A stretch of DNA of 64,000 nucleotides from Alphaproteobacteria bacterium GM202ARS2 (GTDB lineage: Bacteria; Pseudomonadota; Alphaproteobacteria; GM7ARS4), in contig JACONH010000012.1 in assembly GCA_014323835.1 (NCBI GenBank), forward strand, positions 95,363 through 159,362. Reading direction: 5' to 3'. Shown one piece after another: positions 8,828 through 49,837 of the stretch. The notes beneath the pieces are model-generated. The model worked only from the letters and a program-made list of their open reading frames with translations. It had not been told where the DNA came from and searched no databases. The stretch's first letter is position 1, and each line of letters opens with the position of its first letter. The translations under genes were made by a program, and so were the position numbers.

Positions 8828-8881
8828 GCGGATGTGGTGACTTGATATTGTGGTGCTATTGTGGCTAGAGTGTGCTGGTGC

Positions 8882-8955: not shown

Positions 8956-8981
8956 CTTTTTTATTTTTTGCACGAGTCATG

Positions 8982-9010
8982 TTGACAAAATCGACTCGTT
9001 CTTTTATGCT
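8982..9010 (+). promoter_or_regulatory. sigma70-like promoter candidate for the giant gene (TTGACA - 17 bp - TATGCT)
   Basis: TTGACA at 8982..8987, a 17-bp spacer, TATGCT at 9005..9010. The RBS AAGGAG lies at 9036..9041, 9 nt before the GTG start at 9051. Confidence 0.35.
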
Positions 9011-9050
9011 TGGCTATCTGTTTTACTGTCACGTCAAAGGAGATTGACCG

Positions 9051-28508: not shown

Positions 28509-31500
28509 ATGAACACATCAACAACACACACTGCAACAACGCAAACTGGGAGAAAAACAACCATGACACTGCTTACTGGCTTTTGTAACACCCTTCGTAA
28601 CATAGGTATAGCCGTCTTTGTGCTTCTTGTTGGAGCCTGCGATTCAGGGACGGAATTCTCGCCGAGTCGAGAAGTCCCCTTCGCACGGTCAGGCGGTAGC
28701 GGCGGTGTCACGCCCACAGACCCGACAACGCCCACAGACCCGGGCACGACAGACCCGGGGACAGTAGACCCATCTCGGGGTGGTCTGGTTGCTGCGTCCA
28801 TTTGTGCGACACCGTATGAGGGCTTGCCGCAGGGCATGACCGAAGCCTCGCAGTGTGTGCGTTTGAACGCGCCAAGCCTCGATGAGAACGGCAACATTGT
28901 GACCAATAGAGATGGCACAGAAGTGCCGCGTTACCGTGATGATGGCATTAGTAGGGAATCGCTGTGCTATCGTGCGGGGCGTAATGACGAACCGCTGGTG
29001 TATGATCACAGCACGGTATCGTGTGTGCGTGCTTTTCAGGGCTGTCCTGATGGGCAGGGAGTCATCCAAGCCCTTGGCAATAACGAGCAAAGTGGCTTGG
29101 GTCGCCGTTGTAGTGGACAAACGCCTGAGAACATTCAGACAATCAGCACGGTGGTTGTGGGTATTGCCAGTGGCGATGATGCGGATGCTCGTCAAGGCAA
29201 GATAGACGCTGCCATTACGGCGGAGCGCATGGCTAATCCTGATGTTGATTTGATTAATGTTGTTGAGGTTTTTTATGACAGCACCGATGATGGCACTGCG
29301 CAAGCGAACAAGCTGCAGGCTGTAACCAACAAAGTCAATGGTGCTCCTCTTGTAGATGGTGAGGCTCGTTTTATCTTCCGCACTGTTGCGGTGGGCATCG
29401 AGCCGACCGACACGCCAGCAGAGCGACTTGCGAAAGTCAAAGCGGCAATCACGGCAGAGCGTGCAACGTTGCCAAGCGGCGGCGGGGGTGAGACGGCTCT
29501 TAATGCCAATTCGATTATTAATGTCATTGAGGTCTTTTACGATGACGGTGACAGCGATGCCGAGAAAGAACGCAAAGTGGCTGAGGCTATGCGGGACGAG
29601 GCACAAGGCAATCGATTCGAGCACCAGCTTTTGTTTGTGACGGTTGCGGTGGGCATCGAGCCTGATGACACGCAGGCGATGCGTGAGGACAAAATCAGGG
29701 ATGCGATTAATGCGCGCCGTGCCGAGGTGCCGAATGCTCTTGCGATTGTAGCGGTGCCGGTTTTCCACGAGGCGGACGACACCGATGACGAGAAAAATGC
29801 AGCTTTAGCTGCGGCTTTGGCGGAAGCGGTGCGGGGTGACAATCAAGAGGCGACTGCGTTGCGGAAAAAATATGGCTCGTATACGGCTGATATGTGTAGC
29901 GCGGGCGGGCGTTTGTTGACGGTGCGAGGCACGGGTGCGGATGCTTTGACGGGGACGGGTTGCACGAATTTGTGTGCGGACGGCACGTTTGTTGGTGATG
30001 GCGGCGGGTCGCGCAGTGCTGGTATTTGTTATAATGATGTTGCGTGCACCGCGAGTGGCGGCGGACGAGCCGAACGTGGCAGTGGTGCGTGCATCGCGGC
30101 ATCGCCTGAATCCTGTTATGGAGTTAGTCGTGCGGGCAGTGAAGGTGTTGCCGCTGTATCGTATTTCTTTACGAATAGTCGGTGTATCCACAATGGCTGT
30201 ATCGATGATATATCGTTGGTGCGGGCGACCAGTGCGACTCGTGGCACGAGTACGTGTACGACTGTGCGGGAATGTTATAATCAACATGGCAGAACGTTGA
30301 CGGGTAATCGTTGTGTTGCGAGTTCTCGGTTGTGTTTGCGGCGCGGTGGGCGGGGCTTTGATGGCGATAGGTGTGTGGCAGCGAGCGAAGACTCCTGTGG
30401 CGGTGGCTTGGCGTTCTATTATGAGGGGCAGTGCCTCAGGGCGACATGTGGCGAGAGGAATGAAATCCCTGATGCCAGACGTTTCGATAAGTGCATCAGC
30501 GAGGCGAACTGCACAAGTGACCGCAGCGCGGCGTTGGCACAAAGCGGTGAAATCTGTGTCAGCAAGCAACAGGGCTGTCCGACAGGGCAGGGTGTCAATG
30601 GGGAGAGATGCACCGAGACGGTGAATGCGGCGACGTGTGCGGATGCTGGGCGATTCGTTGATGTGCGTGGCGGTGGTGGGGCGCGCTGTTTTAATACGTG
30701 TGCGGGACGTGAGGTTATTGCGGGGAACGTCTGTTTGGTGGATACGTGTGCCGCGGATGAGGTGTATAGCCCAACGAGTTTCCAGTGTGTCGATATTGAT
30801 AGCGATGCTGATACCGCGGCGACGCAGTGTCAAGCGGTGGGGCTGGTGGCGAATGTCGCCAATAGCCGTTGTGTCGAGCGATGCTCGGGCAATACGAGAA
30901 TCGCCACGACTGGCACGCCGCGCTGTGTGACGGATGTGACCCGCAGCAGTTGTCTGTCTAATAATCAGGCTTTTGATAGGGCGACGGGTGAATGTGTTAC
31001 GGCAGACCTTGATACGTGTGCGGCGACGGGTGCGTTCTATGATGGCTCGGCTTGTGTTGAGTTTGGCAACAATGCGACGATGATAACCACGATACGTGGA
31101 ACGGATGACGCTGCCGCGGATGGCGTCGATGGCAAGCAATCAGCGGCTTTGGCGGCGTTGCGGGAGGCGATTGCCGCGGTTGATGATGCCGATATTGGTA
31201 GCACACAGGACGTAACCACAACAGTGGATGATGATGACGACCCTAATACGCCTGAAGTCCCTATGGATTTCTTTGGCAATGGGGCGGATTTGTTGTTGTT
31301 GCAGGCTTCCGCCAGCGATACCCCAACCCGAACCATGCTGTTGAATCGTTTGCGAGTGGCGTATGCCAATCAGCCGTCCCTCGACCAAGTGGGTGCGGTG
31401 TTCGCGCACCATGTGGGTGACTCGGGGCGGACGTATGGCTTTGGCTCGACGGTGTCGTATTTTGCCCCGATTCCGACAAGCGACCGAGAGGGTAGCGACC

Positions 31501-34500
31501 AAGGCTTACTCGACCTGATTAGCGGCGGCGGTGATGTCTCGGATGCGGCGGTGACCCTAGGAGAAAACTTTAACTTTGGTGGCATCAAGACCCTGCGTCA
31601 TTCTATCGCCCCAGAAGCAACCCTGAATGTTGTCAATACGGCAGGTATGGCATTACAACGGGATTCAAGTGGTCTCAGAGCTATTGTTAGCAGATCTGGG
31701 ACGAGAACGACAGCAGGAAGTGAAAGTTCCTTGAGATCGCTTATAGACAGGGATGAGTTTGTGGTTCAGCTACAGGATACTAACGTGTATCGTCATATTA
31801 CAGGTGCCGGGGCACCAGCATGGCAGACTCGCGGCAATGTCATTCTCTTCGATAACCGCATGGCTGCCGATAAAGATATACACACTGTCTTCGCGGCGCG
31901 GGCAGCCAACTATTTTGAAGGGTTGACGACCGATACCAATGCCGATGCCATCGACCCCATTGGTTTTAGGAATAGCGTCTGGCGTCTCGATGCTCGTGGT
32001 GGTGCTACTTTAGCGACTTCCAGCTTTACTCGTGACCTTGACGCCTACTTCTATGCACCGGGCACACAAAGCCCGGCTTTCGCCAATGTTAGATACGATA
32101 ATCTTTATATCGATCAGCCTAGGGGGAATAATGAGGTTTACACATTGCCCGGCGGCTTTTTCACTAGGCCCCCGCCCCTCGGCGGCACGTTTCCTCATCG
32201 TCCGCAGGGAGAGCAGTTAAGGAATCTCGTCATCGAAGGGCTGTATGGCACTGGCACACGGCTTTATCCGACTACTCGTGGGCGAGAGACGAGGCTCAGA
32301 TTAGTCGTTAATACCCTTAACGCCCGAACAGACACATACAAAATGGTGGACACATTTAGGCGTTTTGACAACAACGAGCTCAATGTGATTGATGCCATTA
32401 TTGACCTGATGAGACAGCGGGCGGCGACTCCCGATGTTGAGATGGATGCTTTGATTTTTGCTGCTGATGATGAAGCCAGCGATATTGGTTTGTTTGCGGG
32501 TTTACCGATTTATATCGACCGTATCCGTGCGACTCGCGATAGTGGCATTGACTCGCCGTTGCCTTACTATCTGGCGGTGGTGGCTGCTGAGGAAGGTGCG
32601 TGTGGGTGGACGGCGCGGGACTTCTGCATTACGGCACCGGGTTCGTATACGTATGCCGCCAGTGGTGCAACCTCGCTATCGACGGCGACCAGTGCCAACG
32701 CCGCGGCGGCGTTGGTGGCGGGTGGCGTTGCCCTGTTGCAAGAGATCTTTGACGGGCAGTTGGGGACGGCAGAAATCATTGCTCGTTTGAAGGCGACGGC
32801 TTCGCAGAACTTCGATGTGGACGACGATGGCAGTAATGACTATGTCGGCAATGAGGATATTCCCGATGCCGATGATGTCCGTGCCGGGCAGCGTCGTTTT
32901 GGGCATGGCTTGTTGGATTTGGCGTGTGCGACTCGTGCCAGTTTAACGCAGAGGCGTTGTCGCACCATTACGGTGAACAACGTGCTGTCGGATGACGCGC
33001 AAGCGTGTCTGAGGGCGAGGCAGGGCTTTGATGGCTCGGCTTGTATTACGTCTCCGGTCAGCCAAGCGGATTGTGACCTTTTGAATGCAACATTTTCCAA
33101 TGGTCAGTGCATGGCACCGAGAGCCCCTCGGGTTGTGCGTGGTAACCGTCAAACGTGTCTGTCGTCGGGGCGGGGCTTTGATGGCACGAACTGCATTGCT
33201 ATCCCTGTCGTGCAGGAGCATTGTGACCCGCTGAATGCGATATTGGCTAGGGGTAATCGTTGTGTTGCGCCGGGTGGTGCTCCTGCGGTTATTCTTGGCA
33301 ATCGCGACAGCGAAGCCGATGTTGTGGCTCTGTTCGAAACGTCCGCACCGTCCTTTAGTGCGGGGGTGACGAACGTACAGAGACTCGCACGGGAATATCA
33401 GAATCAGCCGAGTTTCCGCACCATTGGCGTTGCCGATGCTTATGCCCGCGGTTCCGAGCGCGTCACTTATGGTAGCAGAACCGACAGATTGATGTTGCAT
33501 GATTTGAATCTGGGACAGGGGGCGCGGATAAGTTATATCACCAACTCGCGCTTTGACCCGAGTCATCCTGAGTTCACCCGGGATGCTTATGTCACCGCTG
33601 AGAACAACCACGTCAGAACTGTGCAGGTGATAGACCCTGTTACGATGATGCCTATGATGGAGACGGTGATAGACCCGGATACGATGACGGAAGTGACACG
33701 AGTCGTAACTCGAGACATCATCACCGAGCTGAGCAAGACGTATGGGGCAGAAAGCAACATTGCTCACCATGGGATTCATATCGAAACTGCCTTTTTGACA
33801 CCGAGGGAAGGTGAGCCTGATATTAGCACGCTTATTGGTGGCATTGATGCGGCGGATATGGGTGTGATGGCGTTGATTAATGGGCTTGTCAATCCGTCGG
33901 GGAGCACCGATGCGGCGACTTATGCCAGCAATACCCATGGTGTTGCACCGGGGGCGCGCTTGGAGGTGTTTACGATACCGCACTTAGGCTTCTATTCGCA
34001 TGGCGCCTTCCGTGTGAATGAACAGACGTTGGTGCGTAGGGCTCGTGGTGCTGATCCTTCGGGTAATAACAATAATTTCCGTAACATTGTTGTGTTTAGT
34101 AACGAGATGATTAGAGAGGAGGCTGAGATTCATCCAGTGACCATGAGGAATCTTATTGAGGTGGTGGACGATAGAACAGACGGCAGGTTCGGTTCGACCG
34201 GGCATATTCCTCTTACAAACCCAGAAGGCGGAGACCCAAGAGATACAGTCGTCGGCTACGATACGACATTTAGAACTTTGGTTGAGAACGTCCGTGCCCC
34301 GCATCGAACTCGCAGTGACATACGGCAAGCCCAAGATATATACGTGTTTGCGGCGTTGGATGGTCGTGGCGATACTCGTGATAGTTCGGGTATCAAGGCG
34401 GGTTTCAATGATGCCGGTTTATTTGCCTCGCTGGTAGCGGCATCGCGTCCTAACAATGACGATGGCACGTTGGGTCGGGCGGTTTTTGCCGATTATAGTC

Positions 34501-37500
34501 TGGTTGTGGTGGCGGCGGAGCGTTATCAGACCTACGATAGTGCCAGCTCGTGGGCGGAGAACTCGCCTTGTGGTGGTTTGGTGCAGACCCTCTGTATCGC
34601 TGCCCCGGGTGTGTATCGTTATCGCGACCGTGATGATGATGGCAACTATGAGACAAGCCTAAGCACGGGCTCTAGTGCGAATGCCGCGGCGGCACTGGTT
34701 GCGGGCGGTGTTGCCTTGCTCGAGAGCTTGTTTGGCGACCAGCTTACGTCGGATAGGTTGGTGGTGCGTTTGCTTGCGACAGCCAGCCAAGACTTTGACT
34801 TGAGCGGACAGGGTGGCAATACGCTAGACGGCAATAACGACTATGTGGATGAGACAAACGGCTTAACGAAGGAAGAGCGTTTTGGCGTTGGCTTGCTCGA
34901 CCTCGAGTGTGCGACTCGTCCGATTGTATCGGGGGATACGCCTCGTTGTCGTGGTGGTGTGGCTCGTGGCACGCCTTCGTCTTGTTTGTCGGCGGGTCAG
35001 GGTTATCGTGATACGGGCGGAGGCTCGTGTGTATCGGGCGTGTCGTTGCGGGCTGAGGATTGCACGCGGGCGGGTGGTTTGTTTGATATCCGTCAATCCC
35101 CGCCGCGCTGTGTGACTCGAGTATCCTGTGGGGCGGACACGGACGAAATAACGGGTCGTTGTGTGATTCCTGAGCCCTCGCCGTTGGTGTGTGGCGCGCA
35201 GGGCGAATTCTACCACGCCAGCAGTGGCAGCTGTGTCACCAATTGTCGAGGCACCACCACGCCGCTGGTGAATGTGGCAGGCAATACGTGTGTGAATGCT
35301 TGTGTGGGCGGTGTCCGTGATAGGGTGACGAATACCTGTGTGGCGGCAACGATAGTGGATGTTGGGGTAACGGGTATCAGCACGCGGAATGCGGCTTTGA
35401 ACTTGTTTGTAGGCGACCCGAGCGAATCGAGCGCGGCGCAACAGGTCAAGGATATTCGTAGCGAGTATCAGGCACAGCCGTCACTAGGGATGGTGGGTGC
35501 CGCGCAGGCGTATGTCAGTCAGTTGGGTGCAAGTGACTCTATCGCGAACTTGGGTGAACTGGCGTTGGGACGCGGCAGTAACATTCGAGTTATAACCAAC
35601 GTGCGTTTTGACCCGAATCACCCTGAGTTTGCCTCGTCACTGCCGGGAGTGGACTTTAGAACGTTGACACGTTTTCTGGTGACACCCACCTCAGGCAATG
35701 AATTCACAGCCAACCGTCCGGATCTGGTTCGCTCCAGTGTCTTCCCTCGTGATAGTGGCAACACGGTCGAGTTCTATAGTGCTGGGGTGGGGACGGGCAA
35801 TGCTCGCTTTACCATTGCTATAGACCTGACGGGTGGTAATCCCGGCTCAACAGCAACAAGCCCGTTTGAAGACCTGTCACTGACGGAAGCTGCTGCTTTA
35901 GCGGCGTCGAATGTCGACTTAGTCGCCCTACAGACACTCTTTAGGAGTCTCTTTGCTGCTTCCCCGACGGTGGTCGACTTGACAATTCAAGGGGCGGCGT
36001 CGGCTAACTTACGCCTTGAGACTTTGCCGGGTCGCTACGTGATTAACTTGAACTCGGATGCCACGATGGGATTCCAGCATATCGGGCGAGTCTATGAGGA
36101 TGGCAGTAACATTGGCTCGTATCAAATTGTTATCGACCCAGCCACTGCGGTGCGGGATGCTGGTGATGAAGGCGAATGTGTCGTCAATGAAGATTGCTAT
36201 GCTTCAGGGGTGCCGGCTATTGCGAGCGGGGCAGAGATGGGTGTGTTGGCTCTGATTAACGGCTTATTGGATGGTCAAGGGGGTGCGGGTAACACCCATG
36301 GTATCGCGCCGGCGGCAACGTTGAATGTGTATACCGGCGCGCAAGTGGGTGCGACTGGCGATAACTATTTGGACTTGGTCTATCGTGCTCGGGGTATCGA
36401 TGTGGGACGGGATATCAACGCTGACGATGCCGTTGTAGGAGATGACGACCGCAACATTGTTATCATCCAGAGCGATATGTTGCGTAACTTGGCGAGCGGT
36501 GCCACCGTCCCTGATCCTTCTACGGGTATTACCAATCTCCGTAGCAATAATTCGGCAGTGGATAACTTCTACAAAGCCTTAGAGGTGGGTGCGGCGGATA
36601 CCGCAACGCAGGATGCCTTTATCTTTGTTGCTGATGATGCCCACCGAGCCGATGACGACCCGAACAAAGGCTATGCTGGCTACGTTGAGACACTTGGTGT
36701 GATTAATAGTATGCAGACCCTCTACAACTATAGCCTTCTGGTGGTGGCTGCCGAAGACGGACAGGTTGGCTGTGCCGCACCTCGTCTTGGGTCTGCCTTA
36801 GACGACCTTAGGCGTGCCTGCATCGCTGCCCCGGGGACGTATCGCTACCGCACCCGTAACTCTACCGATGGGACGTATAACGATGCACTAGCAACCGCTA
36901 TCAGTGGCGATGCCGCGGCATCGTTGGTTGCCGGTGGCTTGGCTCTGTTGGAGTCGATATTCCCGACCGAGAACACCTCTCGTTTGATTGATAGGTTGTT
37001 GATGACGGCATCGCAGAACTTCGATATCGATAATGACGACCTCAACGATTACGATGTTAACCAACACGGACAAGGGCTGATGGACTTAGAGTGTGCGGTG
37101 CGTCCCGCGCTTATGAGCGGCACGCTGGCTCGCACGGGTTGCACGGATAGGTTTGCGAGTGGTATTCCCGACCCGACTCCGCCGTCGCAGAATGCGCCGT
37201 TACCGCGCCCGCCTTCACAGAACGCTGAGCCTGTCGGTGAGTCGCAAGGGGAGCGCGCCGATACCGGCGGTGTCGAGTATTGTCATATTGATGGTTTGCG
37301 GATTATTTTGTCTGGTGATTTATGTTCGGACGATTATATATTGCTGGCGGACAGCGAGGGCGAGGTCAATCCTGATGCGATAGGTAACTTGCGGTTTGGC
37401 ATGGGCTTTGGCGATGCTTTATCGGGCAGTGCTTTTGGTGGCATTACGTTCTTTGATGCTTTTGATACGGCGTGGACGATAGACAATCCGTATAATCCGT

Positions 37501-38654
37501 ATGCGCAGCTGTTGGACTTTGGCAGTATTGTGATTGCGCCGATTGAGTCTCGTTTTGACATTGAGGATAGGTTCTATGCGATGCGTTATGGCACGCGTCC
37601 GGGCACGCGTAAGACGTGGAATAGTGATACGGCGAATATCACGATGGACTTTGCTACGCAGGGCATGGCGACCAAGCCTTATGCGGTCACTCGGGGTCAA
37701 ATCCGCAACACGATAACCCATGATAATGTGGGTGCTGACCCGTATGCGGATGTGCGCTTTATGTTGTCGGCGGAGGACAACGTGGGCATTGGCAGGCTGA
37801 AGGTTATGGCGTATTCGGGCATGGCGATGGGGTATGCTTTGGGCTTGCATGCGCAGGGCGATGCGATGATGCCGAGTTATTTGCTGACGAACCGTGATTC
37901 CTTCCATGCGCCGTATTTGTCGTTGGCGAGCAGTGGCTTAGGTGGTGGTATGACGTATCGATTCCGTGATGGTGGTCATATTGGTTTTGTGATGGGTGAG
38001 GGCACGAGTTTGAATGCGGATGGCACTTTGCCGTATCAGCAGCAGACGCGTCGTCCTAGGGCTTTTGCTGGCATGATGGAGTATGCCCCGCATGGCAATT
38101 TGATGTTCCATGTGGGTGTTTTGCAGGAGCAGAGCACGTTGTTGGCATCGCAGGGTTCGGGTTTGTTTGCGTTGCAGGGTGGCACAACGGCGTTCTTTGG
38201 CATGCAAGCCAAGCAGCCGTTGGGTGACAACTGGCAGGCGTTGGTGAGTGGTTATGGGGGTCGCACGCAGATGGCTCGCACGAGTGGCATTGTGTCAGGC
38301 TTGGATGTGGTGACGTCATCCTTTGATGTGGGCTTGTTGGGCTCGCATGTGTTAGAGAAGGGCGACCATGTGTTGTTCCGTGCGGGACAGCCTATGCGGG
38401 TAGAGTCGGGCACGTTGGACTTGTCCTATGTATCGTTCCGCAACAAAGCGCGGGGCTCGGTGGGCAATGTGCAGAGCTTGGATGTTGCACCAAGCATGCG
38501 CTCGGTGGAATTCGGCGTGGGCTATGGCTTACCCATAGGCACAAACGGAAGCACGGGACACATGCGATTCGCTATCGACTATGTCCTCAACCCGGGACAC
38601 CGCAACGTCCAAGACGAAGTCTTCGGTATCATGTCCTTCAGAAGAGAATTCTAG
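28509..38654 (+). CDS. giant surface protein paralog (3381 aa). It has a lipoprotein-type signal, three subtilase(S8)-like modules, Cys-rich repeats and a C-terminal autotransporter-like beta-domain.
   Basis: GGGGAGGG SD 6 nt before the ATG. The signal/lipobox is ...IAVFVLLVGACDSG, followed by TPTDPTTPTDPGTTDPG. Three modules carry the YANQPS / RFDPSHPEF / NTHGVAPGA / APG / SANAAAALVAGG motifs. The C-terminal ~520 aa are near-identical to 26900..28497 and end in GIMSFRREF. Confidence 0.75.
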   Translation: MNTSTTHTATTQTGRKTTMTLLTGFCNTLRNIGIAVFVLLVGACDSGTEFSPSREVPFARSGGSGGVTPTDPTTPTDPGTTDPGTVDPSRGGLVAASICATPYEGLPQGMTEASQCVRLNAPSLDENGNIVTNRDGTEVPRYRDDGISRESLCYRAGRNDEPLVYDHSTVSCVRAFQGCPDGQGVIQALGNNEQSGLGRRCSGQTPENIQTISTVVVGIASGDDADARQGKIDAAITAERMANPDVDLINVVEVFYDSTDDGTAQANKLQAVTNKVNGAPLVDGEARFIFRTVAVGIEPTDTPAERLAKVKAAITAERATLPSGGGGETALNANSIINVIEVFYDDGDSDAEKERKVAEAMRDEAQGNRFEHQLLFVTVAVGIEPDDTQAMREDKIRDAINARRAEVPNALAIVAVPVFHEADDTDDEKNAALAAALAEAVRGDNQEATALRKKYGSYTADMCSAGGRLLTVRGTGADALTGTGCTNLCADGTFVGDGGGSRSAGICYNDVACTASGGGRAERGSGACIAASPESCYGVSRAGSEGVAAVSYFFTNSRCIHNGCIDDISLVRATSATRGTSTCTTVRECYNQHGRTLTGNRCVASSRLCLRRGGRGFDGDRCVAASEDSCGGGLAFYYEGQCLRATCGERNEIPDARRFDKCISEANCTSDRSAALAQSGEICVSKQQGCPTGQGVNGERCTETVNAATCADAGRFVDVRGGGGARCFNTCAGREVIAGNVCLVDTCAADEVYSPTSFQCVDIDSDADTAATQCQAVGLVANVANSRCVERCSGNTRIATTGTPRCVTDVTRSSCLSNNQAFDRATGECVTADLDTCAATGAFYDGSACVEFGNNATMITTIRGTDDAAADGVDGKQSAALAALREAIAAVDDADIGSTQDVTTTVDDDDDPNTPEVPMDFFGNGADLLLLQASASDTPTRTMLLNRLRVAYANQPSLDQVGAVFAHHVGDSGRTYGFGSTVSYFAPIPTSDREGSDQGLLDLISGGGDVSDAAVTLGENFNFGGIKTLRHSIAPEATLNVVNTAGMALQRDSSGLRAIVSRSGTRTTAGSESSLRSLIDRDEFVVQLQDTNVYRHITGAGAPAWQTRGNVILFDNRMAADKDIHTVFAARAANYFEGLTTDTNADAIDPIGFRNSVWRLDARGGATLATSSFTRDLDAYFYAPGTQSPAFANVRYDNLYIDQPRGNNEVYTLPGGFFTRPPPLGGTFPHRPQGEQLRNLVIEGLYGTGTRLYPTTRGRETRLRLVVNTLNARTDTYKMVDTFRRFDNNELNVIDAIIDLMRQRAATPDVEMDALIFAADDEASDIGLFAGLPIYIDRIRATRDSGIDSPLPYYLAVVAAEEGACGWTARDFCITAPGSYTYAASGATSLSTATSANAAAALVAGGVALLQEIFDGQLGTAEIIARLKATASQNFDVDDDGSNDYVGNEDIPDADDVRAGQRRFGHGLLDLACATRASLTQRRCRTITVNNVLSDDAQACLRARQGFDGSACITSPVSQADCDLLNATFSNGQCMAPRAPRVVRGNRQTCLSSGRGFDGTNCIAIPVVQEHCDPLNAILARGNRCVAPGGAPAVILGNRDSEADVVALFETSAPSFSAGVTNVQRLAREYQNQPSFRTIGVADAYARGSERVTYGSRTDRLMLHDLNLGQGARISYITNSRFDPSHPEFTRDAYVTAENNHVRTVQVIDPVTMMPMMETVIDPDTMTEVTRVVTRDIITELSKTYGAESNIAHHGIHIETAFLTPREGEPDISTLIGGIDAADMGVMALINGLVNPSGSTDAATYASNTHGVAPGARLEVFTIPHLGFYSHGAFRVNEQTLVRRARGADPSGNNNNFRNIVVFSNEMIREEAEIHPVTMRNLIEVVDDRTDGRFGSTGHIPLTNPEGGDPRDTVVGYDTTFRTLVENVRAPHRTRSDIRQAQDIYVFAALDGRGDTRDSSGIKAGFNDAGLFASLVAASRPNNDDGTLGRAVFADYSLVVVAAERYQTYDSASSWAENSPCGGLVQTLCIAAPGVYRYRDRDDDGNYETSLSTGSSANAAAALVAGGVALLESLFGDQLTSDRLVVRLLATASQDFDLSGQGGNTLDGNNDYVDETNGLTKEERFGVGLLDLECATRPIVSGDTPRCRGGVARGTPSSCLSAGQGYRDTGGGSCVSGVSLRAEDCTRAGGLFDIRQSPPRCVTRVSCGADTDEITGRCVIPEPSPLVCGAQGEFYHASSGSCVTNCRGTTTPLVNVAGNTCVNACVGGVRDRVTNTCVAATIVDVGVTGISTRNAALNLFVGDPSESSAAQQVKDIRSEYQAQPSLGMVGAAQAYVSQLGASDSIANLGELALGRGSNIRVITNVRFDPNHPEFASSLPGVDFRTLTRFLVTPTSGNEFTANRPDLVRSSVFPRDSGNTVEFYSAGVGTGNARFTIAIDLTGGNPGSTATSPFEDLSLTEAAALAASNVDLVALQTLFRSLFAASPTVVDLTIQGAASANLRLETLPGRYVINLNSDATMGFQHIGRVYEDGSNIGSYQIVIDPATAVRDAGDEGECVVNEDCYASGVPAIASGAEMGVLALINGLLDGQGGAGNTHGIAPAATLNVYTGAQVGATGDNYLDLVYRARGIDVGRDINADDAVVGDDDRNIVIIQSDMLRNLASGATVPDPSTGITNLRSNNSAVDNFYKALEVGAADTATQDAFIFVADDAHRADDDPNKGYAGYVETLGVINSMQTLYNYSLLVVAAEDGQVGCAAPRLGSALDDLRRACIAAPGTYRYRTRNSTDGTYNDALATAISGDAAASLVAGGLALLESIFPTENTSRLIDRLLMTASQNFDIDNDDLNDYDVNQHGQGLMDLECAVRPALMSGTLARTGCTDRFASGIPDPTPPSQNAPLPRPPSQNAEPVGESQGERADTGGVEYCHIDGLRIILSGDLCSDDYILLADSEGEVNPDAIGNLRFGMGFGDALSGSAFGGITFFDAFDTAWTIDNPYNPYAQLLDFGSIVIAPIESRFDIEDRFYAMRYGTRPGTRKTWNSDTANITMDFATQGMATKPYAVTRGQIRNTITHDNVGADPYADVRFMLSAEDNVGIGRLKVMAYSGMAMGYALGLHAQGDAMMPSYLLTNRDSFHAPYLSLASSGLGGGMTYRFRDGGHIGFVMGEGTSLNADGTLPYQQQTRRPRAFAGMMEYAPHGNLMFHVGVLQEQSTLLASQGSGLFALQGGTTAFFGMQAKQPLGDNWQALVSGYGGRTQMARTSGIVSGLDVVTSSFDVGLLGSHVLEKGDHVLFRAGQPMRVESGTLDLSYVSFRNKARGSVGNVQSLDVAPSMRSVEFGVGYGLPIGTNGSTGHMRFAIDYVLNPGHRNVQDEVFGIMSFRREF

Positions 38655-38657: not shown

Positions 38658-39404
38658 GTGAAGGCTCAAGATTATGCCAGAGAAGGAGAAAATATAGCCG
38701 AAGGTATAAGCTCAATCATCGATTCAAACTTTAAGGATCAGGAGTGGAACAAGACGTTCGCTCGTGTCCTACAGGCACAACTCAAGCAAGCACGCAAAAT
38801 AGGCGGAGAATTACGACTCCGCCTATACGGCTCGAACGAAAAAGAAAATAAAGAAGCACAATACGATATACAAAGTATGGCAAACCAGCTCATCCCTGCG
38901 GATTGGGTCAATAAAAGTAACGAGTGTGGAACGATACACACTCGTAGAATCAGGGGCAGACAATGGCACAGATTCATTAGACAAAACAGCACAATCAAAG
39001 TAGATGACTTGCAAAATCCTATCAACGTAACAGCTGGGGACTCGTTGATTTTTACCGCAGAAAATGAAATTTACGATACCATGCACGAATTCGTTCACAG
39101 ACTACAAAACGTCTTCCCTGACATTCAAGAGATGTTTCAAAGTATCCACGACCAGCGAACTGCTCACGAAGACATAGATTATCTTTATCACGACGGGCAT
39201 GAAGTTGGCAAAAAGGACGATTACATTAACGCATATTTTGGCAGAGTCTATCCACATGGGGGCGCGCTCGAACTTTGGCCTATGTGTTGCCAATCAATCA
39301 TGGGGCATTTATTAGATGACTTGTATTGCCAACGCTTTTTCCTTGAAAAAGACCCCGAATTAGCTTACATAACCATAGGCGTTCTTTTTTGTTTCGAAGG
39401 GTAA
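38658..39404 (+). CDS. hypothetical protein with an HExxH motif (possible zinc-dependent hydrolase)
   Basis: 248-aa ORF starting at GTG 4 nt after the giant-gene stop, in an AT-rich patch. It contains MHEFVHRLQ (HExxH) and several Cys/His downstream. No family could be assigned by eye. Confidence 0.45.
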   Translation: MKAQDYAREGENIAEGISSIIDSNFKDQEWNKTFARVLQAQLKQARKIGGELRLRLYGSNEKENKEAQYDIQSMANQLIPADWVNKSNECGTIHTRRIRGRQWHRFIRQNSTIKVDDLQNPINVTAGDSLIFTAENEIYDTMHEFVHRLQNVFPDIQEMFQSIHDQRTAHEDIDYLYHDGHEVGKKDDYINAYFGRVYPHGGALELWPMCCQSIMGHLLDDLYCQRFFLEKDPELAYITIGVLFCFEG

Positions 39405-39410
39405 AAAGAG

Positions 39411-39740
39411 ATGGCACAACATCAATTCAAAATCCAAAGAAACGGGCACGACTGGTCTGTCGTATGGGACGACAAAACCCAACGATTCACGGGCGACCAT
39501 CCCAAAATCGATACAATGAACCGCTTGCTCGATAATCCGCCAGGTGACTACTACGCGGGCGTCTTCCCGCCCATAGGGTGCTACCAACCAAAAACCGACA
39601 AAGCCGACCTCATGGGTCTGTTGTGCATCGCCCTCAACATTTACACAGAGAACCCCACAATCAATACACCGCCCGCCTTCAAAGACGTACGAACCCGCTA
39701 CCCAAAAAGCTTCAAATTCAACCCCAACGTCGAATACTAA
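39411..39740 (+). CDS. hypothetical protein
   Basis: 109-aa ORF 6 nt after the previous stop, in the same AT-rich cassette. No recognisable motif. Confidence 0.4.
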   Translation: MAQHQFKIQRNGHDWSVVWDDKTQRFTGDHPKIDTMNRLLDNPPGDYYAGVFPPIGCYQPKTDKADLMGLLCIALNIYTENPTINTPPAFKDVRTRYPKSFKFNPNVEY

Positions 39741-39821
39741 ACGTTTGTAAAAGGGTTGCCATCGTTGCGATAATCAACCATATTACACGTAGGGGGCAAC
39801 GTAACCTAGGGAGCTATCGAC

Positions 39822-40160
39822 ATGGCACTGACACCCCCCGCCGCTGACGCACACGACCGCATGATCGAAGAAAACTTCGATGCTCTGCAAAAAATGCTAC
39901 CGACCCTGATGCAAAAAGAAGCAGGAAGGTATGCCCTTATGCGCGACTGCAAGCTTGTCGAGACGTTCACAGGTGCCACTGACGCGCAAAAATATGCCTC
40001 CGTGATATATGACGATGACAACTACAGCGTGCACAAAATTACAGATGCTCCCGTAGTTGTTCCTACTGTGTGGCGTGTGAGCAACAAGCCAAAAAAAGTA
40101 AGAATTGTTATCACCCCCCCAGTTGGTCCCGTCGTTATTACTCGTATGTTGGGTGTGTAG
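39822..40160 (+). CDS. hypothetical protein
   Basis: 112 aa. GGGAG lies 9 nt upstream of the ATG. Its TAG stop is directly abutted by the ATG of the next ORF. Confidence 0.45.
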   Translation: MALTPPAADAHDRMIEENFDALQKMLPTLMQKEAGRYALMRDCKLVETFTGATDAQKYASVIYDDDNYSVHKITDAPVVVPTVWRVSNKPKKVRIVITPPVGPVVITRMLGV

Positions 40161-40556
40161 ATGCCTCTGCTAAAACTTAAATTTGACCCAAAAGTTGGTG
40201 CCATCATACCTGTTGTTTTAGAGTATAAGGATGAAGGTGAAAAAAAATCTCACAAGACACGCGCTTTGATTGATACGGGGGCGAGTTCGACATGTGTAAG
40301 CGGTCGTCTTATAAAAACATTAGGGTTGTCGCCTGATGAGGAGACGGTACCTATAACAGGGACGACGGGAAAGATGGAGTCTAGAACATTTTCTGTTGAT
40401 ATTGTTCTTGCTATTGATATTGAAGAATTTAGTTTCGGGTGCCAACTTGTTGAGTATAACGAAACATCGCCCACATACGATATTTTGTTAGGGCGAGATA
40501 TCCTACAGCACTTTCTACTCCAGACTCATGGAAGCGATGGGCTCATCGGCTATTAG
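40161..40556 (+). CDS. retropepsin-like (clan AA) aspartic protease domain protein
   Basis: 131 aa. ALIDTGASSTCVS carries the D-T-G-A active-site signature of the retroviral-type aspartyl protease fold. The C-terminal ILLGRDILQHF resembles the conserved ILGxDxL flap/dimer segment. Confidence 0.6.
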   Translation: MPLLKLKFDPKVGAIIPVVLEYKDEGEKKSHKTRALIDTGASSTCVSGRLIKTLGLSPDEETVPITGTTGKMESRTFSVDIVLAIDIEEFSFGCQLVEYNETSPTYDILLGRDILQHFLLQTHGSDGLIGY

Positions 40557-40572
40557 GCTACCCCCCCCCACC

Positions 40573-41760
40573 TTACGCCTGCATACGGCGTATTGCCTCG
40601 CCGTCGCCCAATTCTGCTGCTCGTTTATAATCATCCAACGCCTTGTCCTCGTTGCCCAACGTCTCATAAGCCTTCGCACGTTGACGATACACCGCGCCCT
40701 GATACGAATCTAAGGCAATCGCCCGTGTATAATCCTCGATGGCTCTTGGCAAATCGCCCCTGCCCGCATAAGCAAAGCCTCGATTGGCATACAACAACGC
40801 ATCCGAGCCATCGCTCAATTCTATTGCCTTGGTGTAATCCACAACCGCACGATGATGGTCGCCATGACGCACATAGGCATACGCCCGATTGTTATACGCC
40901 ACCGCATAATACGGCTGTAAATCAATCGCCTGCGTAAAGTCCTCTATCGCCTCGGCAAAGTCACCGCGGCTATAATACGTGTTCGCCCGATTGTTATAGA
41001 AAACCGCCTGCTGCGGGTTTAATTCTATCGCCTTGGTATAATCACTAATCGCCTGCAACCTATCGCCCTTATCGCCCTTCTTGGCATAAGCATTGCCCCG
41101 ACTATTATAATAGCCGGCATGCTTGGGTTTGAGTTCTATCGCCTGCGTGTAATCGCTAATGGCATCGTCCTTCTCGCCCAACAAGTGATAGGCATCGCCA
41201 CGATTGCCATAATACAAGGCATCCTGCCCATTCAAAGCAATCGCCTGCGTATAATCCTTAATCGCCTCAGCCAAGTCGCCGCGGCTATAATACGTCATGC
41301 CACGATTGTTATAGTGAATAGCGTTGTCCGACTCCAGTTCGATGGCTCGAGTAAAATCCTTAATCGCCCGTAACCTGTCGCCTTGGTCGCCCTTATGAAC
41401 ATAAGCATTGCCCCGACGAGTATAAAAATCGGCCCGCTTGGGCTCCAAGTCAATCGCCTTGTTGAAATCGGCAAGAGCCCGCTCCTTGTCGCCATTCTGA
41501 TGATAAATGTCGCCGCGGTTGTTATAGAAAACCGCCTGCTTAGGCTGCAAGGCGATGGCTTGCTCCATATCCGCCAAAGCCTCGTCATACGCCGCTGCCC
41601 GCTGATACAACAACGCCCGCTCGTTATGGACAATCGCCCGCTCAACAGGATCCTGTGCGGCTTGCAACGCCTTCGTTTTGTCCTCAATCAATGCGATAAG
41701 CTTGGCATCCATCGTCTGTGCTTGTGTCATGATTCGTCCCTTGATACTATGATACGGCAC
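40573..41760 (-). CDS. tetratricopeptide (TPR) repeat protein
   Basis: 395 aa with at least 9 tandem 34-aa TPR units (AI.L.P..A..YNNRG.AY...GD...AI.DYT.AIEL.P). Confidence 0.8.
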   Translation of the reverse strand: MPYHSIKGRIMTQAQTMDAKLIALIEDKTKALQAAQDPVERAIVHNERALLYQRAAAYDEALADMEQAIALQPKQAVFYNNRGDIYHQNGDKERALADFNKAIDLEPKRADFYTRRGNAYVHKGDQGDRLRAIKDFTRAIELESDNAIHYNNRGMTYYSRGDLAEAIKDYTQAIALNGQDALYYGNRGDAYHLLGEKDDAISDYTQAIELKPKHAGYYNSRGNAYAKKGDKGDRLQAISDYTKAIELNPQQAVFYNNRANTYYSRGDFAEAIEDFTQAIDLQPYYAVAYNNRAYAYVRHGDHHRAVVDYTKAIELSDGSDALLYANRGFAYAGRGDLPRAIEDYTRAIALDSYQGAVYRQRAKAYETLGNEDKALDDYKRAAELGDGEAIRRMQA

Positions 41761-41795
41761 CCCCGCAATTCACCCCACCCTAGCACATAATCACA

Positions 41796-42410
41796 ATGTT
41801 CTTCAAACGCTTGAACCAAGACCTCACCGCCTTCTGTAGCAGAGACCCCGCGGCAACATCGAAGTTGCACGTGCTTTTGCTTTATCCCGGGTTGCATGCG
41901 CTGCTGCTGCACCGCCTCGCGCACCGCCTCTGGCGGATGCACCTGCGATTCCCCGCGCTGTTCATCGCCTTTCTCAGCCGATTCCTCACCAACATCGAAA
42001 TACACCCCGCCGCAACCATCCAAGAAGGACTCGTCATCGACCACGGCAGCGGACTCGTCATCGGCGAAACCACCATCATCGGCAAACACTGCACCCTTTA
42101 CCAAAACGTAACCCTCGGCGGCATTGCGCCCTCCATCAACACCGCCTCACAAAAAAACCGCCAAAGACACCCGCACCTGCACGACTACGTCATCATCGGC
42201 GCCGGCGCACAAGTGCTAGGGGCTATCACCATCGGCACCGGTGCGCGCATCGGCGCCAACGCCGTCGTCACCAACAACGTCAAACCCCACACAACCGTTG
42301 TCGGCATACCGGCAAAACCCATCAAACACACGCCACAAAAAACCGCTCCCGATTTCCAACCCTACGCCCTCACCACCGATACACAAAAAGATGATAAAAA
42401 AGCTCGATAG
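41796..42410 (+). CDS. cysE: serine O-acetyltransferase
   Basis: 204 aa. N-terminal SAT helical region (LLYPGLHALLLHRLAHRLW) and hexapeptide repeats (IHPAATIQEGLVIDHGSGLVIGETTIIGKHCTLYQNVTLGG). Confidence 0.8.
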   Translation: MFFKRLNQDLTAFCSRDPAATSKLHVLLLYPGLHALLLHRLAHRLWRMHLRFPALFIAFLSRFLTNIEIHPAATIQEGLVIDHGSGLVIGETTIIGKHCTLYQNVTLGGIAPSINTASQKNRQRHPHLHDYVIIGAGAQVLGAITIGTGARIGANAVVTNNVKPHTTVVGIPAKPIKHTPQKTAPDFQPYALTTDTQKDDKKAR

Positions 42411-43554
42411 CCTTTACCTCGATTGTAACGCCAGTGCGCCCTTGTTGCCCTGCGCCCGCCAAGCCCTCCTTCAGCACCTCGATACCTACGGCAATCCCTC
42501 GTCGAGCCACGCGCTCGGACAACAAGCCCGCGCCACCATCGATAGCGCCCGACAAACCATCCAAGCAACCCTCAACGCGCAACACGGACGATTCGTCTTC
42601 ACCTCAGGAGCCAGCGAATCCAACGCCCTCGCCCTCACACAAGACTGGCAACACGTTCTGCTCGCCCCCACCGACCACGACTCGCTGGTCGTCCACGCCC
42701 AATACACGTATCCCCAAACGCTGACGTTGCTCCCTGTCACCAAGCACGGACTGCTCGATATCGATGCCCTAGACTCGCAGCTGCGCACCATACGGGCAAC
42801 GTCACAAGGCACAATCCTGCTGTGCTTAACGTGGGCACACAACGAAATCGGCACATACTACGATGACGCTACGTTGCAAGCGATTGTCCGCCTCAGCCGT
42901 GTCTACGACGCTGCCCTGCACATAGACGCCGCGCAAGCCGTGGGCAAAATCCCCGTCAACATCGATGGGTTGGCTCCGCAGCACCCCGCTTTGTCGGTTG
43001 CTCTTTCCGCTCACAAAGTCGGGGGACCCAAGGGTATTGGCGGATTCTACACGACTCGACAAGAAACTCGACCCCTGACATACGGCGGCGGACAAGAATA
43101 CGCCCTCAGACCCGGTAGCGAACACACGCCCGCCATCGCTGCTTTTGCCGCCGCTGTCGCCCACACCCACAACACCACAGCACAAAAACAATGGCAGAAG
43201 TGGCGCGATGCTTTCGAAGACAACCTGCAACAGAGCCTACCGCAAGCCGTCATCATCGCTCGGGACGCCCCGAGACTGCCGAATACCAGCTGTTTTGCTC
43301 TGCCGCCGGTGCTGGCGGAAACGATGCTGGTCGCTCTCGACCTCGATAACATCGCTATTGGTAAAGGCTCTGCCTGCGCCCAAGCCAAAAATGAACCGTC
43401 ACGAACCCTGAAAGCCATCGGACACGACAGCCTACAAAGCTACACCATGCGAGCCAGCTGCGGTATGCACAACAACAAAGACGACTTCGACAGATTGCTG
43501 GCAGCCCTGCAAAAAAATGTCGAAAATATGAGCCATGCTCGTGATAGGGCTTGA
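42391..43554 (+). CDS. cysteine desulfurase family protein (class V aminotransferase, NifS-like paralog)
   Basis: Start set at ATG 42391 ([20 protein letters not shown]...). Fold-type I PLP enzyme features: ...[11 protein letters not shown]...[13 protein letters not shown]...[15 protein letters not shown]... The upstream part of the 42241 ORF overlaps cysE. Confidence 0.7.
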
Positions 43555-43576
43555 CAACGGGCACGAGAAAACCTAT

Positions 43577-44812
43577 ATGGATAGCATGAGTGCGAAACAC
43601 GACCAGAAACCGATTTACCTCGATTATCAGGCAACGACGCCCACCGACCCGCGAGTGGTGGATGCGATGATGCCGTATTTTCACGAGCATTTTGGCAATC
43701 CTCATTCACGGAACCACCCGTATGGATGGGAAGCGGAAGAAGCCATCGAAAAAGCGAGGGAACAGGTCGCGCACATCATCAACGCTAACCCGAAAGAAAT
43801 CATCTTCACCTCGGGGGCAACGGAATCGAACAACATCGCTATCAAAGGTGTCGCCAAGTTCTACCAAGAACGGAAAAACCACATCATCACGTGCGTCACG
43901 GAACACAAGTGTGTGCTGGAATCATGCCGTCACCTGTCTCAAGATGGCTTCGATATCACCTACCTGCCGGTGCAAGAAAACGGTTTGATTGACCTAGACG
44001 AGTTGCGTAAAGCCATTACCGATAAGACGGCTCTGATTTCTATCATGGGCGTTCACAACGAGATTGGCGTGATTCAGCCTTTGAAGGAAATCGGTGCGTT
44101 GGCGCGGGAACACAAAGTCTTCTTCCATAGCGATTGCGCGCAAGCGGTGGGCAAAATCCCCCTCGACGTCCAAGAGATGAATATTGACCTGATGAGTATC
44201 TCGGGTCACAAAATCTACGGGCCCAAAGGTGTGGGTGCCCTGTTTGTGCGCCGTAAGCCACGGGTGCGGCTCGCCCCCATGATGAGCGGCGGCGGACAAG
44301 AAAGAGGCATGCGCTCAGGCACACTGCCAACGCCCCTCTGTGTCGGACTCGGCGAAGCATGCGCTATCTGCGAAAAAGAAATGGCAAAAGAAAACGAACG
44401 GCTCCATAGCCTACACAACCAGTTCATCGCAGATATCAAAAGTGAGCTCTCCGATGTTTACATCAACGGCGACACCACACACCGAATCCCCGGCAACATC
44501 AATATTAGCTTCGCCTACGTCGAAGGCGAGTCGCTGATGATGGGCATTAAAGACTTGTCGCTGTCCTCAGGGTCGGCATGCACGTCCGCATCGTTGGAAC
44601 CTTCTTATGTGTTGCGCGCTCTGGGCGTGGACGAGGAGTTGGCTCACACCAGCCTCAGAATCGGTTTGGGGCGATTCACAACCAAAGAGCAGCTGAAAAA
44701 AGCCGCTCAATCGATTGTCTCGAGCGTGCAAAAACTCAGGGAAATGAGCCCGCTATGGGAAATGGCTCAAGAAGGAATCGATATCAGCAAAATCGAGTGG
44801 GCCCATCACTAA
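43577..44812 (+). CDS. iscS: cysteine desulfurase IscS
   Basis: [53 protein letters not shown], the PLP-lysine motif [20 protein letters not shown] and the active-site loop [21 protein letters not shown]. The start could be 43577 or 43586. Confidence 0.85.
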
Positions 44813-48602: not shown

Positions 48603-48803
48603 ATGGGACTGCGCTGGAGTGACACCTACGATATTGCTATCGAACTGGAAGAACGCTATCCCAACGAGGATAACGTCAATCTGCGTTTTACGGACTTGCA
48701 CAAGTGGGTCACGAGCCTGCCCGACTTCGAAGACGACCCGCAAGGGTCTAATGAATCTATCCTCGAAGCCATACAGATGGCTTGGATCGAAGAAAGAGAA
48801 TGA
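48603..48803 (+). CDS. iscX: Fe-S assembly protein IscX
   Basis: MGLRWSDTYDIAIELEERYPNEDNVNLRFTDLHKWVTSLPDFEDDPQGSNESILEAIQMAWIEE is colinear with E. coli IscX (MGLKWTDSREIGEAL...). The in-frame ATG at 48594 would overlap fdx. Confidence 0.7.
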   Translation: MGLRWSDTYDIAIELEERYPNEDNVNLRFTDLHKWVTSLPDFEDDPQGSNESILEAIQMAWIEERE

Positions 48804-49837
48804 AAGCGATCGAACGTATCAAAATCAGTAACGTTGCAGCTTTTGAGGAATTCGATTGCGCACTGTCCCCGGGCATCAACGCGTTTATTGGCGTTAATGG
48901 CACAGGAAAAACACGCCTGCTGAAACTGCTGTATATTTTTTGTCATTGGGTCGAAAGGAAGTATTTTGATACAGGCAATTTAAATATTGAATATTTGAAT
49001 GAATATTTTTTACCTAGTGAAAATTCTATTGGCAGGTTAGTAAGAAAAGGGCAGCAGGACGCTGAAGTTAGGTTTTTTATAGATGGAAAGAGTAAATTTA
49101 TGTCTTTTAGTAGAAACATGACGCAAGGCTTGATTTTTGGTGGAAACATCAAAATTGAAGCGACAATAAAAGGTGTCTACATTCCGTCAAAGGACATTCT
49201 TGCCAATGCACCAGGTTTTAGGTCTCTTTATGAAAAAAGGGAAATTCATTTTGAGAAAGTCTTTAAGGATATTCTTGACCATGCGTATCTTCCTTCTCTT
49301 AAAAACATTGATAGCAGAAAGGCGATGCTGGATATTTTGCAACGGGAGATGGGGGGACAGGTCGTCATCAAGGGCGAGGAGTTTTTTTTGGTGACGGACA
49401 AAGGGGAAGAATTCGAATTTACCCTACTGGCAGAGGGCATGCGTAAGTTAGGGTTGTTGTGGCTGTTGATTAAGAATGGTTCTTTGATAGCTGATGATGA
49501 CAATACGTTGTCGGTTTTGTGTTGGGATGAGCCTGAGACGAATTTGAATCCGAGGATGTTTGAATCGGTGGTGGATGTTCTGTTAGCGTTGCAGCGTCAA
49601 GGAGTGCAAATATTCTTGGCGACTCACAGCTATCCTTTTTTGAAGTTCATCGACCTGAAACGTAATAAAGAAAGCGACAAGGTTTTGTTTCATGCTCTCG
49701 ATGTTGATACGTCCCATGGTGTTACGTGCGAAAGCACGAAGCATTACGAAGACCTTGCCCCCAATGCGTTGGTTGAAGCCTATGATACGCTATATGACTA
49801 TGAAATCAAACGTATGGTGGGGAGAAAAAGAACGTGA
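48800..49837 (+). CDS. ABC-type / AAA_21-like ATPase (defence-associated family candidate)
   Basis: Start set at ATG 48800 (ATGA overlap with the iscX stop): MKAIERIKISNVAAFEEF.. Walker A is GVNGTGKT, signature-like LAEGMRKLGLL, Walker B LSVLCWDEPETNLNP, H-loop IFLATHSYPF. GC content drops sharply after about 48930. Confidence 0.7.
   Translation: MKAIERIKISNVAAFEEFDCALSPGINAFIGVNGTGKTRLLKLLYIFCHWVERKYFDTGNLNIEYLNEYFLPSENSIGRLVRKGQQDAEVRFFIDGKSKFMSFSRNMTQGLIFGGNIKIEATIKGVYIPSKDILANAPGFRSLYEKREIHFEKVFKDILDHAYLPSLKNIDSRKAMLDILQREMGGQVVIKGEEFFLVTDKGEEFEFTLLAEGMRKLGLLWLLIKNGSLIADDDNTLSVLCWDEPETNLNPRMFESVVDVLLALQRQGVQIFLATHSYPFLKFIDLKRNKESDKVLFHALDVDTSHGVTCESTKHYEDLAPNALVEAYDTLYDYEIKRMVGRKRT

Follow-up and report, generated by a model that had tools for sequence, protein, structure and literature searches.

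We analysed a window of 64,000 nt (the whole stretch of DNA under study) from Alphaproteobacteria bacterium GM202ARS2 (contig JACONH010000012.1, positions 95,363 to 159,362 of the forward strand) and focused on four short open reading frames (ORFs), ORF1 to ORF4, which lie on the same strand between a giant gene and a TPR gene (Table 1). The original prediction, made from the sequence alone, described the four ORFs as one AT-rich cassette encoding an HExxH protein, two unknown proteins and a retropepsin-like aspartic protease, and proposed either that they process or mature the neighbouring giant proteins or that they are an unrelated, horizontally acquired element of a toxin-immunity- or defence-like kind. 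The present results instead point to two separate pairs, each made up of a predicted protease gene and the gene of a small partner protein, namely ORF1-ORF2, related to a phage head module, and ORF3-ORF4, a linked pair that recurs across bacterial phyla.

The coordinates confirmed the tight packing of the four same-strand ORFs, with gaps of 6, 81 and 0 nt from ORF1 to ORF4 in order, and 3 nt separate the stop codon of the giant gene from the start of ORF1. The reported drop in GC content over about 1.9 kb was also confirmed, since the region 38658-40556 has a GC content of 0.454 against a window mean of 0.541 and is the second-lowest-GC 1.9-kb stretch in the window (1.7th percentile). The dip is uneven, with low values in ORF1 (0.427) and ORF4 (0.422) and higher ones in ORF2 (0.506) and ORF3 (0.499). 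The low GC content marks the region as foreign, as it does for the HEC-02 pair located elsewhere in the window (see below). The spacer between the two pairs contains two overlapping sigma-70-like sites; the regional number of such sites is no higher than expected by chance, and their position alone is suggestive. The four proteins are identical to MBC6444930-33, of which three are annotated as hypothetical and one as 'retroviral-like aspartic protease'. None of them has a hydrophobic segment or a signal-like N-terminus, and all four are predicted to be cytoplasmic. Because the ratios of nonsynonymous to synonymous substitution rates (dN/dS) of ORF1 and ORF2 are low and the families of ORF3 and ORF4 are conserved across phyla (both described below), the sequence comparisons indicate that the four ORFs are real genes and not chance ORFs.

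Table 1. Features of the ORF1-ORF4 region, with positions in the window
Feature	Position	Strand	Remarks
Giant gene upstream of ORF1	28509-38654	+	3381 aa
ORF1	38658-39404	+	248 aa, GTG start
HExxH motif of ORF1	39084-39098		H143, E144, H147
Putative third metal ligand of ORF1	39270-39272		E205
ORF2	39411-39740	+	109 aa
Spacer separating the two pairs	39741-39821		81 nt; includes 5' edge of the segment missing in relative L008
Spacer plus ORF3-ORF4	39741-40572		832-bp segment; L008 has 19 nt instead; gained or lost as a unit
Sigma-70-like sites (two, overlapping)	39745-39784		
ORF3	39822-40160	+	112 aa
ORF4	40161-40556	+	131 aa
DTGA of ORF4	40272-40283		within ALIDTGAS
GRD of ORF4	40491-40499		within LLGRDIL
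TPR gene, next after ORF4	40573-41760	-	

The active-site signatures noted previously, HExxH in ORF1 and DTGA and GRD in ORF4, were all located. In ORF1 the motif falls within the sequence MHEFVHRLQ (residues 142-150). Word-indexed searches with ORF1 and ORF3 had returned the query alone, as if both were orphan genes, but a full phmmer search and a neighbourhood-based collection of homologues overturned this. The full phmmer search with ORF1 gave 268 relatives. In 99 of the best 150, the match corresponds to the C-terminal approximately 170-240 residues of proteins of 400-1050 aa, and the Pfam domain Phage_Mu_F was found in the N-terminal part of 8 of the 14 such proteins that were scanned, while no Pfam family covers the ORF1-like part. 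ORF1 is thus a homologue of the domain that forms the C-terminus of MuF-type phage head proteins. Of 149 homologues, 148-149 keep residues H143, E144 and H147, and 146 of 147 keep the putative third metal ligand E205; Q150 and Y198 are also essentially invariant (about 149 homologues). In the predicted structure, the HExxH motif lies in a helix (residues 138-152) and E205 at the start of another (206-215), and the predicted fold is that of a zincin, closest to Pro-Pro endopeptidases (PPEP-2 and PPEP-3) and anthrax lethal factor. The residue conservation and the structural model together indicate that ORF1 is a stand-alone zincin-like (gluzincin) metallopeptidase with intact catalytic residues. 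None of the Pfam and NCBIfam peptidase families matched ORF1 at E values up to 1, and the ORF1 profile gave only a non-significant match to an M3 active site (E = 0.21) among PDB sequences. Matches of ORF1 to ChapFlgA/FlgA were below the cut-off and were dismissed as chance. Few relatives of ORF1 are found outside phages, and a search of isolated phages returned a single Bacillus phage with ORF1 and no match with ORF2.

ORF2 is 57% identical to the gene that follows the ORF1 homologue in a related contig, L008, and the family shares conserved W19-D20, G28 and P60; no Pfam family matches it. At locus L010, a Mu-type portal gene (portal_Mu) is followed by a gene for a MuF-zincin protein and then by an ORF2-like gene, and at locus L009 a stand-alone zincin gene of 248 aa is followed by an ORF2-like ORF of 112 aa, a Mu-like protease gene and the major capsid gene. 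The small ORFs that follow the zincin in L010 and L009 are both homologous to ORF2. We also recovered 33 IMG/VR contigs by using a degenerate DNA pattern for the zincin active-site region, and 30 of these have, directly after the zincin gene, an ORF of 97-138 aa that begins at its stop codon or, in most cases, overlaps it, the commonest overlap being 11 nt. When this viral downstream-ORF family, which likewise has no Pfam family, was compared with the ORF2 group by hhalign, the two matched with a probability of 94% (E = 1.4e-7) and had the W-D, G and P positions in common. A jackhmmer search from ORF2 did not reach the viral downstream ORFs, whereas the profile-profile comparison did. ORF2 is therefore assigned to the small-protein family encoded directly after zincin-bearing phage MuF genes.

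According to published work, an ORF of <150 aa with a proposed immunity function comes after 89.4% of toxin-bearing MuF genes (PMC5576092), and zincin-like peptidases are the commonest domain of the phage polyvalent proteins injected with the DNA (PMC5512222). The Ct_MAD domain (Jamet et al. 2017, PMC5576092) is the C-terminus of COG2369 and is not equated with ORF1 here, and the C-terminal domain of Mu F was called a predicted RNase by Iyer et al. 2017 (PMC5512222). No phage genes were found near ORF1-ORF2 in the window or in L001, a JGI contig from the same organism which gave no added information. The retention of the partner with the protease in both the window and L008, although the MuF part and all other phage genes are gone, argues that ORF2 would work with the zincin rather than with the capsid.

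ORF4 scored above the gathering cut-offs of three Pfam models, gag-asp_proteas (PF13975; 40.9 bits, cut-off 28.2), Asp_protease_2 (PF13650; 38.3 bits, cut-off 24.3) and PF00077 (27.6 bits, cut-off 20.7), and a profile of its relatives matched the solved, dimeric structures of DDI1 (4.6e-5) and HTLV-1 protease (1.2e-4). Its scores were below the NCBIfam cut-offs for TIGR03698 (clan_AA_DTGF; 26.3, cut-off 57.35) and TIGR02281 (clan_AA_DTGA; 22.5, cut-off 57.95). D38, T39, G40, A41, G111, R112 and D113 are invariant in 24 relatives. No membrane anchor was found, the maximum Kyte-Doolittle mean over 19 residues being 1.31, with no hydrophobic segment at the N-terminus. These matches identify ORF4 as a true single-lobe retropepsin-like (clan AA) aspartic protease. 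Its relatives form a distinct subfamily with the pattern LIDTGASSTC ... LxGRDIL ... F-x-L-x-F/Y, in which LIDTGASSTC and LxGRDIL are invariant. With the model of ORF1 and the profile matches of ORF4, both folds that had been proposed, zincin and retropepsin, received structural support.

The protein encoded by ORF3 is predicted to have an alpha-beta-beta-alpha-beta core (residues 7-75) and a disordered C-terminal tail (residues 82-112). Its model had no fold match, and a profile search of the PDB gave chance hits only. A folded N-terminal domain with a disordered tail is the usual layout of type II antitoxins.

In four metagenomic contexts of ORF4 relatives, an unannotated ORF of 79-100 aa lies immediately before the protease gene, which it overlaps or abuts (4/4). 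A wider scan, with one genome per species, collected 37 retropepsin loci, including ones from Alpha- and Gammaproteobacteria, Myxococcales, Chloroflexota, Planctomycetota, Verrucomicrobiota, Nitrospirae, Acidobacteriota, Bacteroidota, Gemmatimonadota, Latescibacteria, Ignavibacteriae, Saccharimonadales, Fimbriimonadales (Armatimonadota), Binatia and Clostridiales. Jackhmmer searches from ORF3 recruited 31 of the 32 upstream ORFs extracted from these loci, and a six-frame scan with a hidden Markov model (HMM) found an ORF3-family region directly upstream of the retropepsin gene, on the same strand, in all 31 assessable loci. Loci were assessable when they had a strong protease match and upstream sequence; the remaining six were a locus cut off by the end of its contig and five with weak matches. 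Four of these five are in Flavobacteriaceae, and the five are taken to be a different retropepsin subfamily. The pairing of ORF3 with ORF4, as had been suspected from their arrangement, was thus borne out in 31/31 loci. The distances among ORF3-family proteins and among their retropepsins are correlated (Mantel r = 0.71; none of 2000 permutations reached this value). The surroundings of the pair have no fixed composition, since the 106 proteins that flank it fall into 95 Pfam families, each seen once.

The metagenome-assembled genome (MAG) OZ255620.1 from Acetobacteraceae has two 99.5%-identical copies of a 639-bp unit that consists of just the pair, and several copies of the pair are truncated or frameshifted, as expected for dispensable selfish modules. 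Taken together, these comparisons show that ORF3-ORF4 belongs to a widespread and strictly linked pair, mobile as a unit of about 0.7 kb without fixed neighbours. ORF3-family proteins are named hypothetical in public records, our literature searches found no published description of a pair of this type, and the pair is apparently undescribed.

Some further observations were made on the carriers of this pair. The two copies in OZ255620.1 (L060 and L061, at 4.49 Mb and 3.28 Mb) each combine an ORF3-family gene with a retropepsin gene truncated to 88 aa; another repeat, of 338 bp, is found near them, and the pair seems to have been copied as a bare unit. In L065, L075 and L080 the retropepsin gene is split into two HMM fragments, apparently by frameshifts, which could reflect decay or assembly error. 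Several of the carriers (L044, L056/L007 and cluster members) are MAGs with locus tags and isolate names in the style of the source genome (Ekhidna sp. GM202BCY1, Hyphomonadaceae SP12AHP1), and the shared naming suggests a common gene pool in one host-associated or marine community. The copy of the pair in the window is 32-38% identical to that of any of those carriers, with no sign of recent transfer.

The relationship between the two pairs was examined in L008, an independent contig that was found through the closest ORF1 homologue in an exhaustive phmmer search. The genes that flank the site in the window recur in L008, namely the 3' part of the giant gene that encodes the C-terminus, cysE, the isc genes and the TPR gene, whose product is 82% identical, and L008 has ORF1 and ORF2 at the same site (57-59% and 57% identity, respectively), whereas the segment that holds ORF3-ORF4 in the window is replaced by a few nucleotides (Table 1). 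In a blastn comparison, positions 38850-39738 of the window aligned with 5178-6060 of L008 and positions 40573-44000 with 6082-9505, and nothing aligned between them. There were no direct or inverted repeats of note around ORF3-ORF4 that would mark an insertion scar. L008 differs further in having two tandem ORFs of 86 aa between the giant gene and the ORF1 homologue, where the window has the 3 nt mentioned above. These 86-aa ORFs have no Pfam family and are a third kind of small cargo at this variable site; the two (L008 4300-4963) are paralogous, and each lies behind a near-identical leader with the palindrome CTCGTGCATTATAATTACGAG.

The dN/dS values between the window and L008 were 0.09 for ORF1, 0.23 for ORF2 and 0.09 for the TPR gene; these values are rough because dS is saturated, but they clearly indicate purifying selection on all three genes. 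Because L008 has ORF1-ORF2 without ORF3-ORF4 and because the distributions of the two pairs elsewhere are entirely separate, ORF1-ORF2 and ORF3-ORF4 are separate units at a site that gains and loses small modules. The single four-gene cassette of the original prediction does not hold, as the four-gene order is not conserved elsewhere, although each of the two pairs is.

The genes upstream of the four ORFs form a run of giant genes at 9051-38654 (+), encoding proteins of 5935, 577 and 3381 aa, directly downstream of a tRNA-Arg(ACG) gene at 8882-8956 (+), and the 30-kb giant-gene block with ORF1-ORF4 might be a tRNA-associated island. Two pseudo-protease giant proteins had been predicted here. 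The second giant protein (3381 aa) has a partial Pfam match to Peptidase_S8, a subtilase-like region, and its C-terminus (...SFRREF) is outer-membrane-protein-like; the first had no Pfam match in the C-terminal 3935 aa scanned. The 577-aa protein has no Pfam match. Its ORF overlaps the 5935-aa ORF by 95 nt in a different frame (26764-26858), which could be a true overlap, a mis-set start or an assembly frameshift. Further downstream in the window, directly after the isc operon, two overlapping genes (351 aa and 167 aa) at 48782-50337 (+) match HEC-02, a candidate defence system in PADLOC (component A, 9.7e-105; component B, 1.1e-40). The HEC-02 region has the lowest GC content of any 1.9 kb in the window (0.421), and it is probably another acquired module.

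On balance, we consider it fairly probable that the locus holds two unrelated, horizontally acquired pairs of a protease and a small partner side by side, which are autonomous and toxin-immunity- or toxin-antitoxin-like and do not serve the giant gene. The alternative of an acquired toxin-immunity- or defence-like element, already raised in the original prediction, is supported to that extent. A variable spot between a giant gene of the outer-membrane type and a conserved TPR gene would have collected two unrelated two-gene modules. ORF1-ORF2 would derive from the head-morphogenesis region of a Mu-like phage, in which the zincin is the C-terminal 'cargo' of MuF and an ORF2-like gene comes next, usually translationally coupled; the MuF part would have been lost, and the protease and its partner would have been retained under purifying selection in at least two lineages. 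ORF3-ORF4 would be a mobile pair of a protease and an upstream small protein. In each pair, the small partner would bind its protease and hold it in check in the manner of an immunity protein or antitoxin, with the disordered C-terminal tail doing the inhibiting in the case of ORF3, and loss of the partner or an infection-type trigger would release the protease to cleave proteins of the cell or of an invader. We infer the role of the partner as cognate inhibitor by analogy, for ORF1-ORF2 because of the published MuF toxin model and for ORF3-ORF4 because of the type II toxin-antitoxin-like anatomy. A more specific version is put forward only tentatively and is perhaps doubtful: ORF3-ORF4 may be an undescribed, phylum-spanning toxin-antitoxin- or defence-like module with a retropepsin effector, the tail of the partner possibly occupying the substrate cleft, and ORF1-ORF2 a phage-injected zincin with its inhibitor, captured by the chromosome without the phage. 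If this were true, ORF3-ORF4 would be, as far as we could find, the first aspartic-protease-based bacterial module of such a kind.

Several points weigh against two autonomous toxin-like pairs. ORF2-like genes might be head-assembly rather than immunity genes, and the ORF2 family is conserved, unlike the hypervariable immunity genes of classical polymorphic toxins. ORF3 has no recognisable DNA-binding fold, and neither ORF3 nor four members of its family matched PDC-M08A of PADLOC at E values up to 10. Around the retropepsin pair, housekeeping genes predominate rather than defence islands, with no enrichment of defence genes. The indel argument comes from one relative contig, L008, and two metagenome scans for close relatives of ORF1 found no others.

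Among the alternatives, the one that fares best, though we think it unlikely, is that ORF3-ORF4 is an anti-phage defence system related to PDC-M08, with a retropepsin effector activated by infection, rather than an addiction module. ORF4 matches PDC-M08B (1.5e-6), the pair at L007 adjoins a restriction-modification gene and a DUF4160/DUF2442 pair, its distribution is patchy and mobile, and the low-GC HEC-02 candidate defence pair is present in the same window. However, the match to PDC-M08B is weak (26 bits) and no better than general retropepsin similarity, ORF3 and its four relatives had no meaningful match to PDC-M08A or any other PADLOC model, and the mostly housekeeping neighbourhoods described above do not favour a defence role.

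It is less likely still that ORF1-ORF2 is the last remnant of a decayed Mu-like prophage without present function. The phage head-module origin, the low GC content of ORF1, the lack of any other phage gene nearby and the scarcity of relatives outside phages would all fit such a remnant. Against it, both ORFs are intact in two lineages at 57% protein identity with the low dN/dS values given above, every invariant active-site residue is retained, and the loss of the MuF part is clean, with the partner gene still in place.

A housekeeping role for ORF3-ORF4, as a regulatory protease with its substrate or adaptor, would have its model in the retropepsin-like protease RimB of Pseudomonas, which works as part of the RimABK system for ribosome modification. 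Regulatory proteases of the retropepsin-like kind are known in bacteria (PMC11957791, PMC11957051), and most genes next to the pair are ordinary metabolic ones. We find this role improbable, since the pair is missing from the closest relative, is scattered across phyla without conserved context, occurs in one genome as two copies of a bare 639-bp unit and is often truncated or frameshifted. Finally, the four genes could form a single operon encoding proteases that would process, mature or release the giant surface proteins next door. In favour of this proposal one could cite the position of ORF1, which starts 3 nt downstream of the giant gene in the same orientation, the subtilase-like region and outer-membrane-protein-like C-terminus of the giant protein, and the reported cleavage of autotransporters by the alphaproteobacterial retropepsin-like protease APRc of Rickettsia (PMC4140852). 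The proposal is very hard to sustain, because ORF3-ORF4 is missing from L008, which has the giant gene, the retropepsin pair has unrelated neighbours in 31 genomes, ORF1-ORF2 is of phage origin, promoter-like sites lie in the spacer ahead of ORF3, and none of the four proteins, ORF4 included, has an export signal or hydrophobic segment, whereas APRc is membrane-embedded.

The two families have some wider implications. Free-standing bacterial retropepsins are poorly understood, and the strict pairing with a small protein provides a testable handle on one large subfamily; if the protease is a held-back effector, aspartic proteases would join the enzymes of toxin-antitoxin or defence modules. ORF1-ORF2 supplies a conserved partner for a zincin cargo domain that is common but unannotated in the head proteins of Mu-like phages, and shows that such a zincin pair can persist outside the phage. 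For annotation, four genes that were hypothetical or loosely named can be assigned to two defined families, and the idea of giant-protein maturation can be dropped.

Among known systems, ORF1-ORF2 most resembles the MuF polymorphic toxins and the phage 'polyvalent' proteins (PMC5576092, PMC5512222; Zhang et al. 2012, PMC3482391). ORF1 and the HExxH domain at the C-terminus of MuF proteins are homologues, and ORF2, 6 nt after ORF1, occupies the position of the small ORF (<150 aa) directly downstream in MuF toxin loci. In contrast to its homologues, ORF1 lacks an N-terminal MuF domain (no match to Phage_Mu_F), and it lies neither in a prophage packaging module nor next to a portal gene, whereas its relatives in L010 and L009 do lie in a phage module of this kind. 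ORF2 also differs from the immunity genes of MuF toxins in belonging to a conserved family rather than being hypervariable. We found no report on the toxicity of an ORF1-type zincin domain. The same papers also link the group of lethal factor and Pro-Pro endopeptidases (M34) to the metallopeptidases of phages and toxins. The sequence identity of ORF1 to PPEP-2, PPEP-3 and anthrax lethal factor (MEROPS M34) is just 9-13%, and there is no match at the sequence level to the Pfam (ATLF-type) or NCBIfam models of M34. ORF1 has an additional N-terminal helical subdomain, which is also present in the MuF-fused forms, and it has no signal peptide, whereas PPEPs and lethal factor are secreted.

Like DDI1, the retroviral proteases, APRc of Rickettsia, RimB of Pseudomonas and the Rlo enzymes, ORF4 is a retropepsin-like protease, and it consists of one lobe (about 130 aa) that carries the DTGA and GRD signatures. 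It has neither the membrane anchor of APRc nor the UBL/UBA domains of DDI1, no RimA/RimK neighbours and no signal peptide, and its subfamily is distinguished from the other clan AA proteases in that an ORF3-family gene always precedes it. Of the two components of the PADLOC candidate PDC-M08, ORF3-ORF4 matches component B alone, and weakly. With respect to type II toxin-antitoxin systems, we found no aspartic protease toxin in any of the described families, and no DNA-binding fold is recognisable in ORF3. The organisation of ORF3-ORF4 is nevertheless similar to theirs in that two small co-directional genes abut or overlap, with the smaller gene first, and in that the pair is autonomous and mobile, with varied neighbours, frequent decay and multiple copies in one genome. 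The similarity extends to the predicted architecture of ORF3 itself, a folded N-terminal domain followed by a disordered C-terminal tail.

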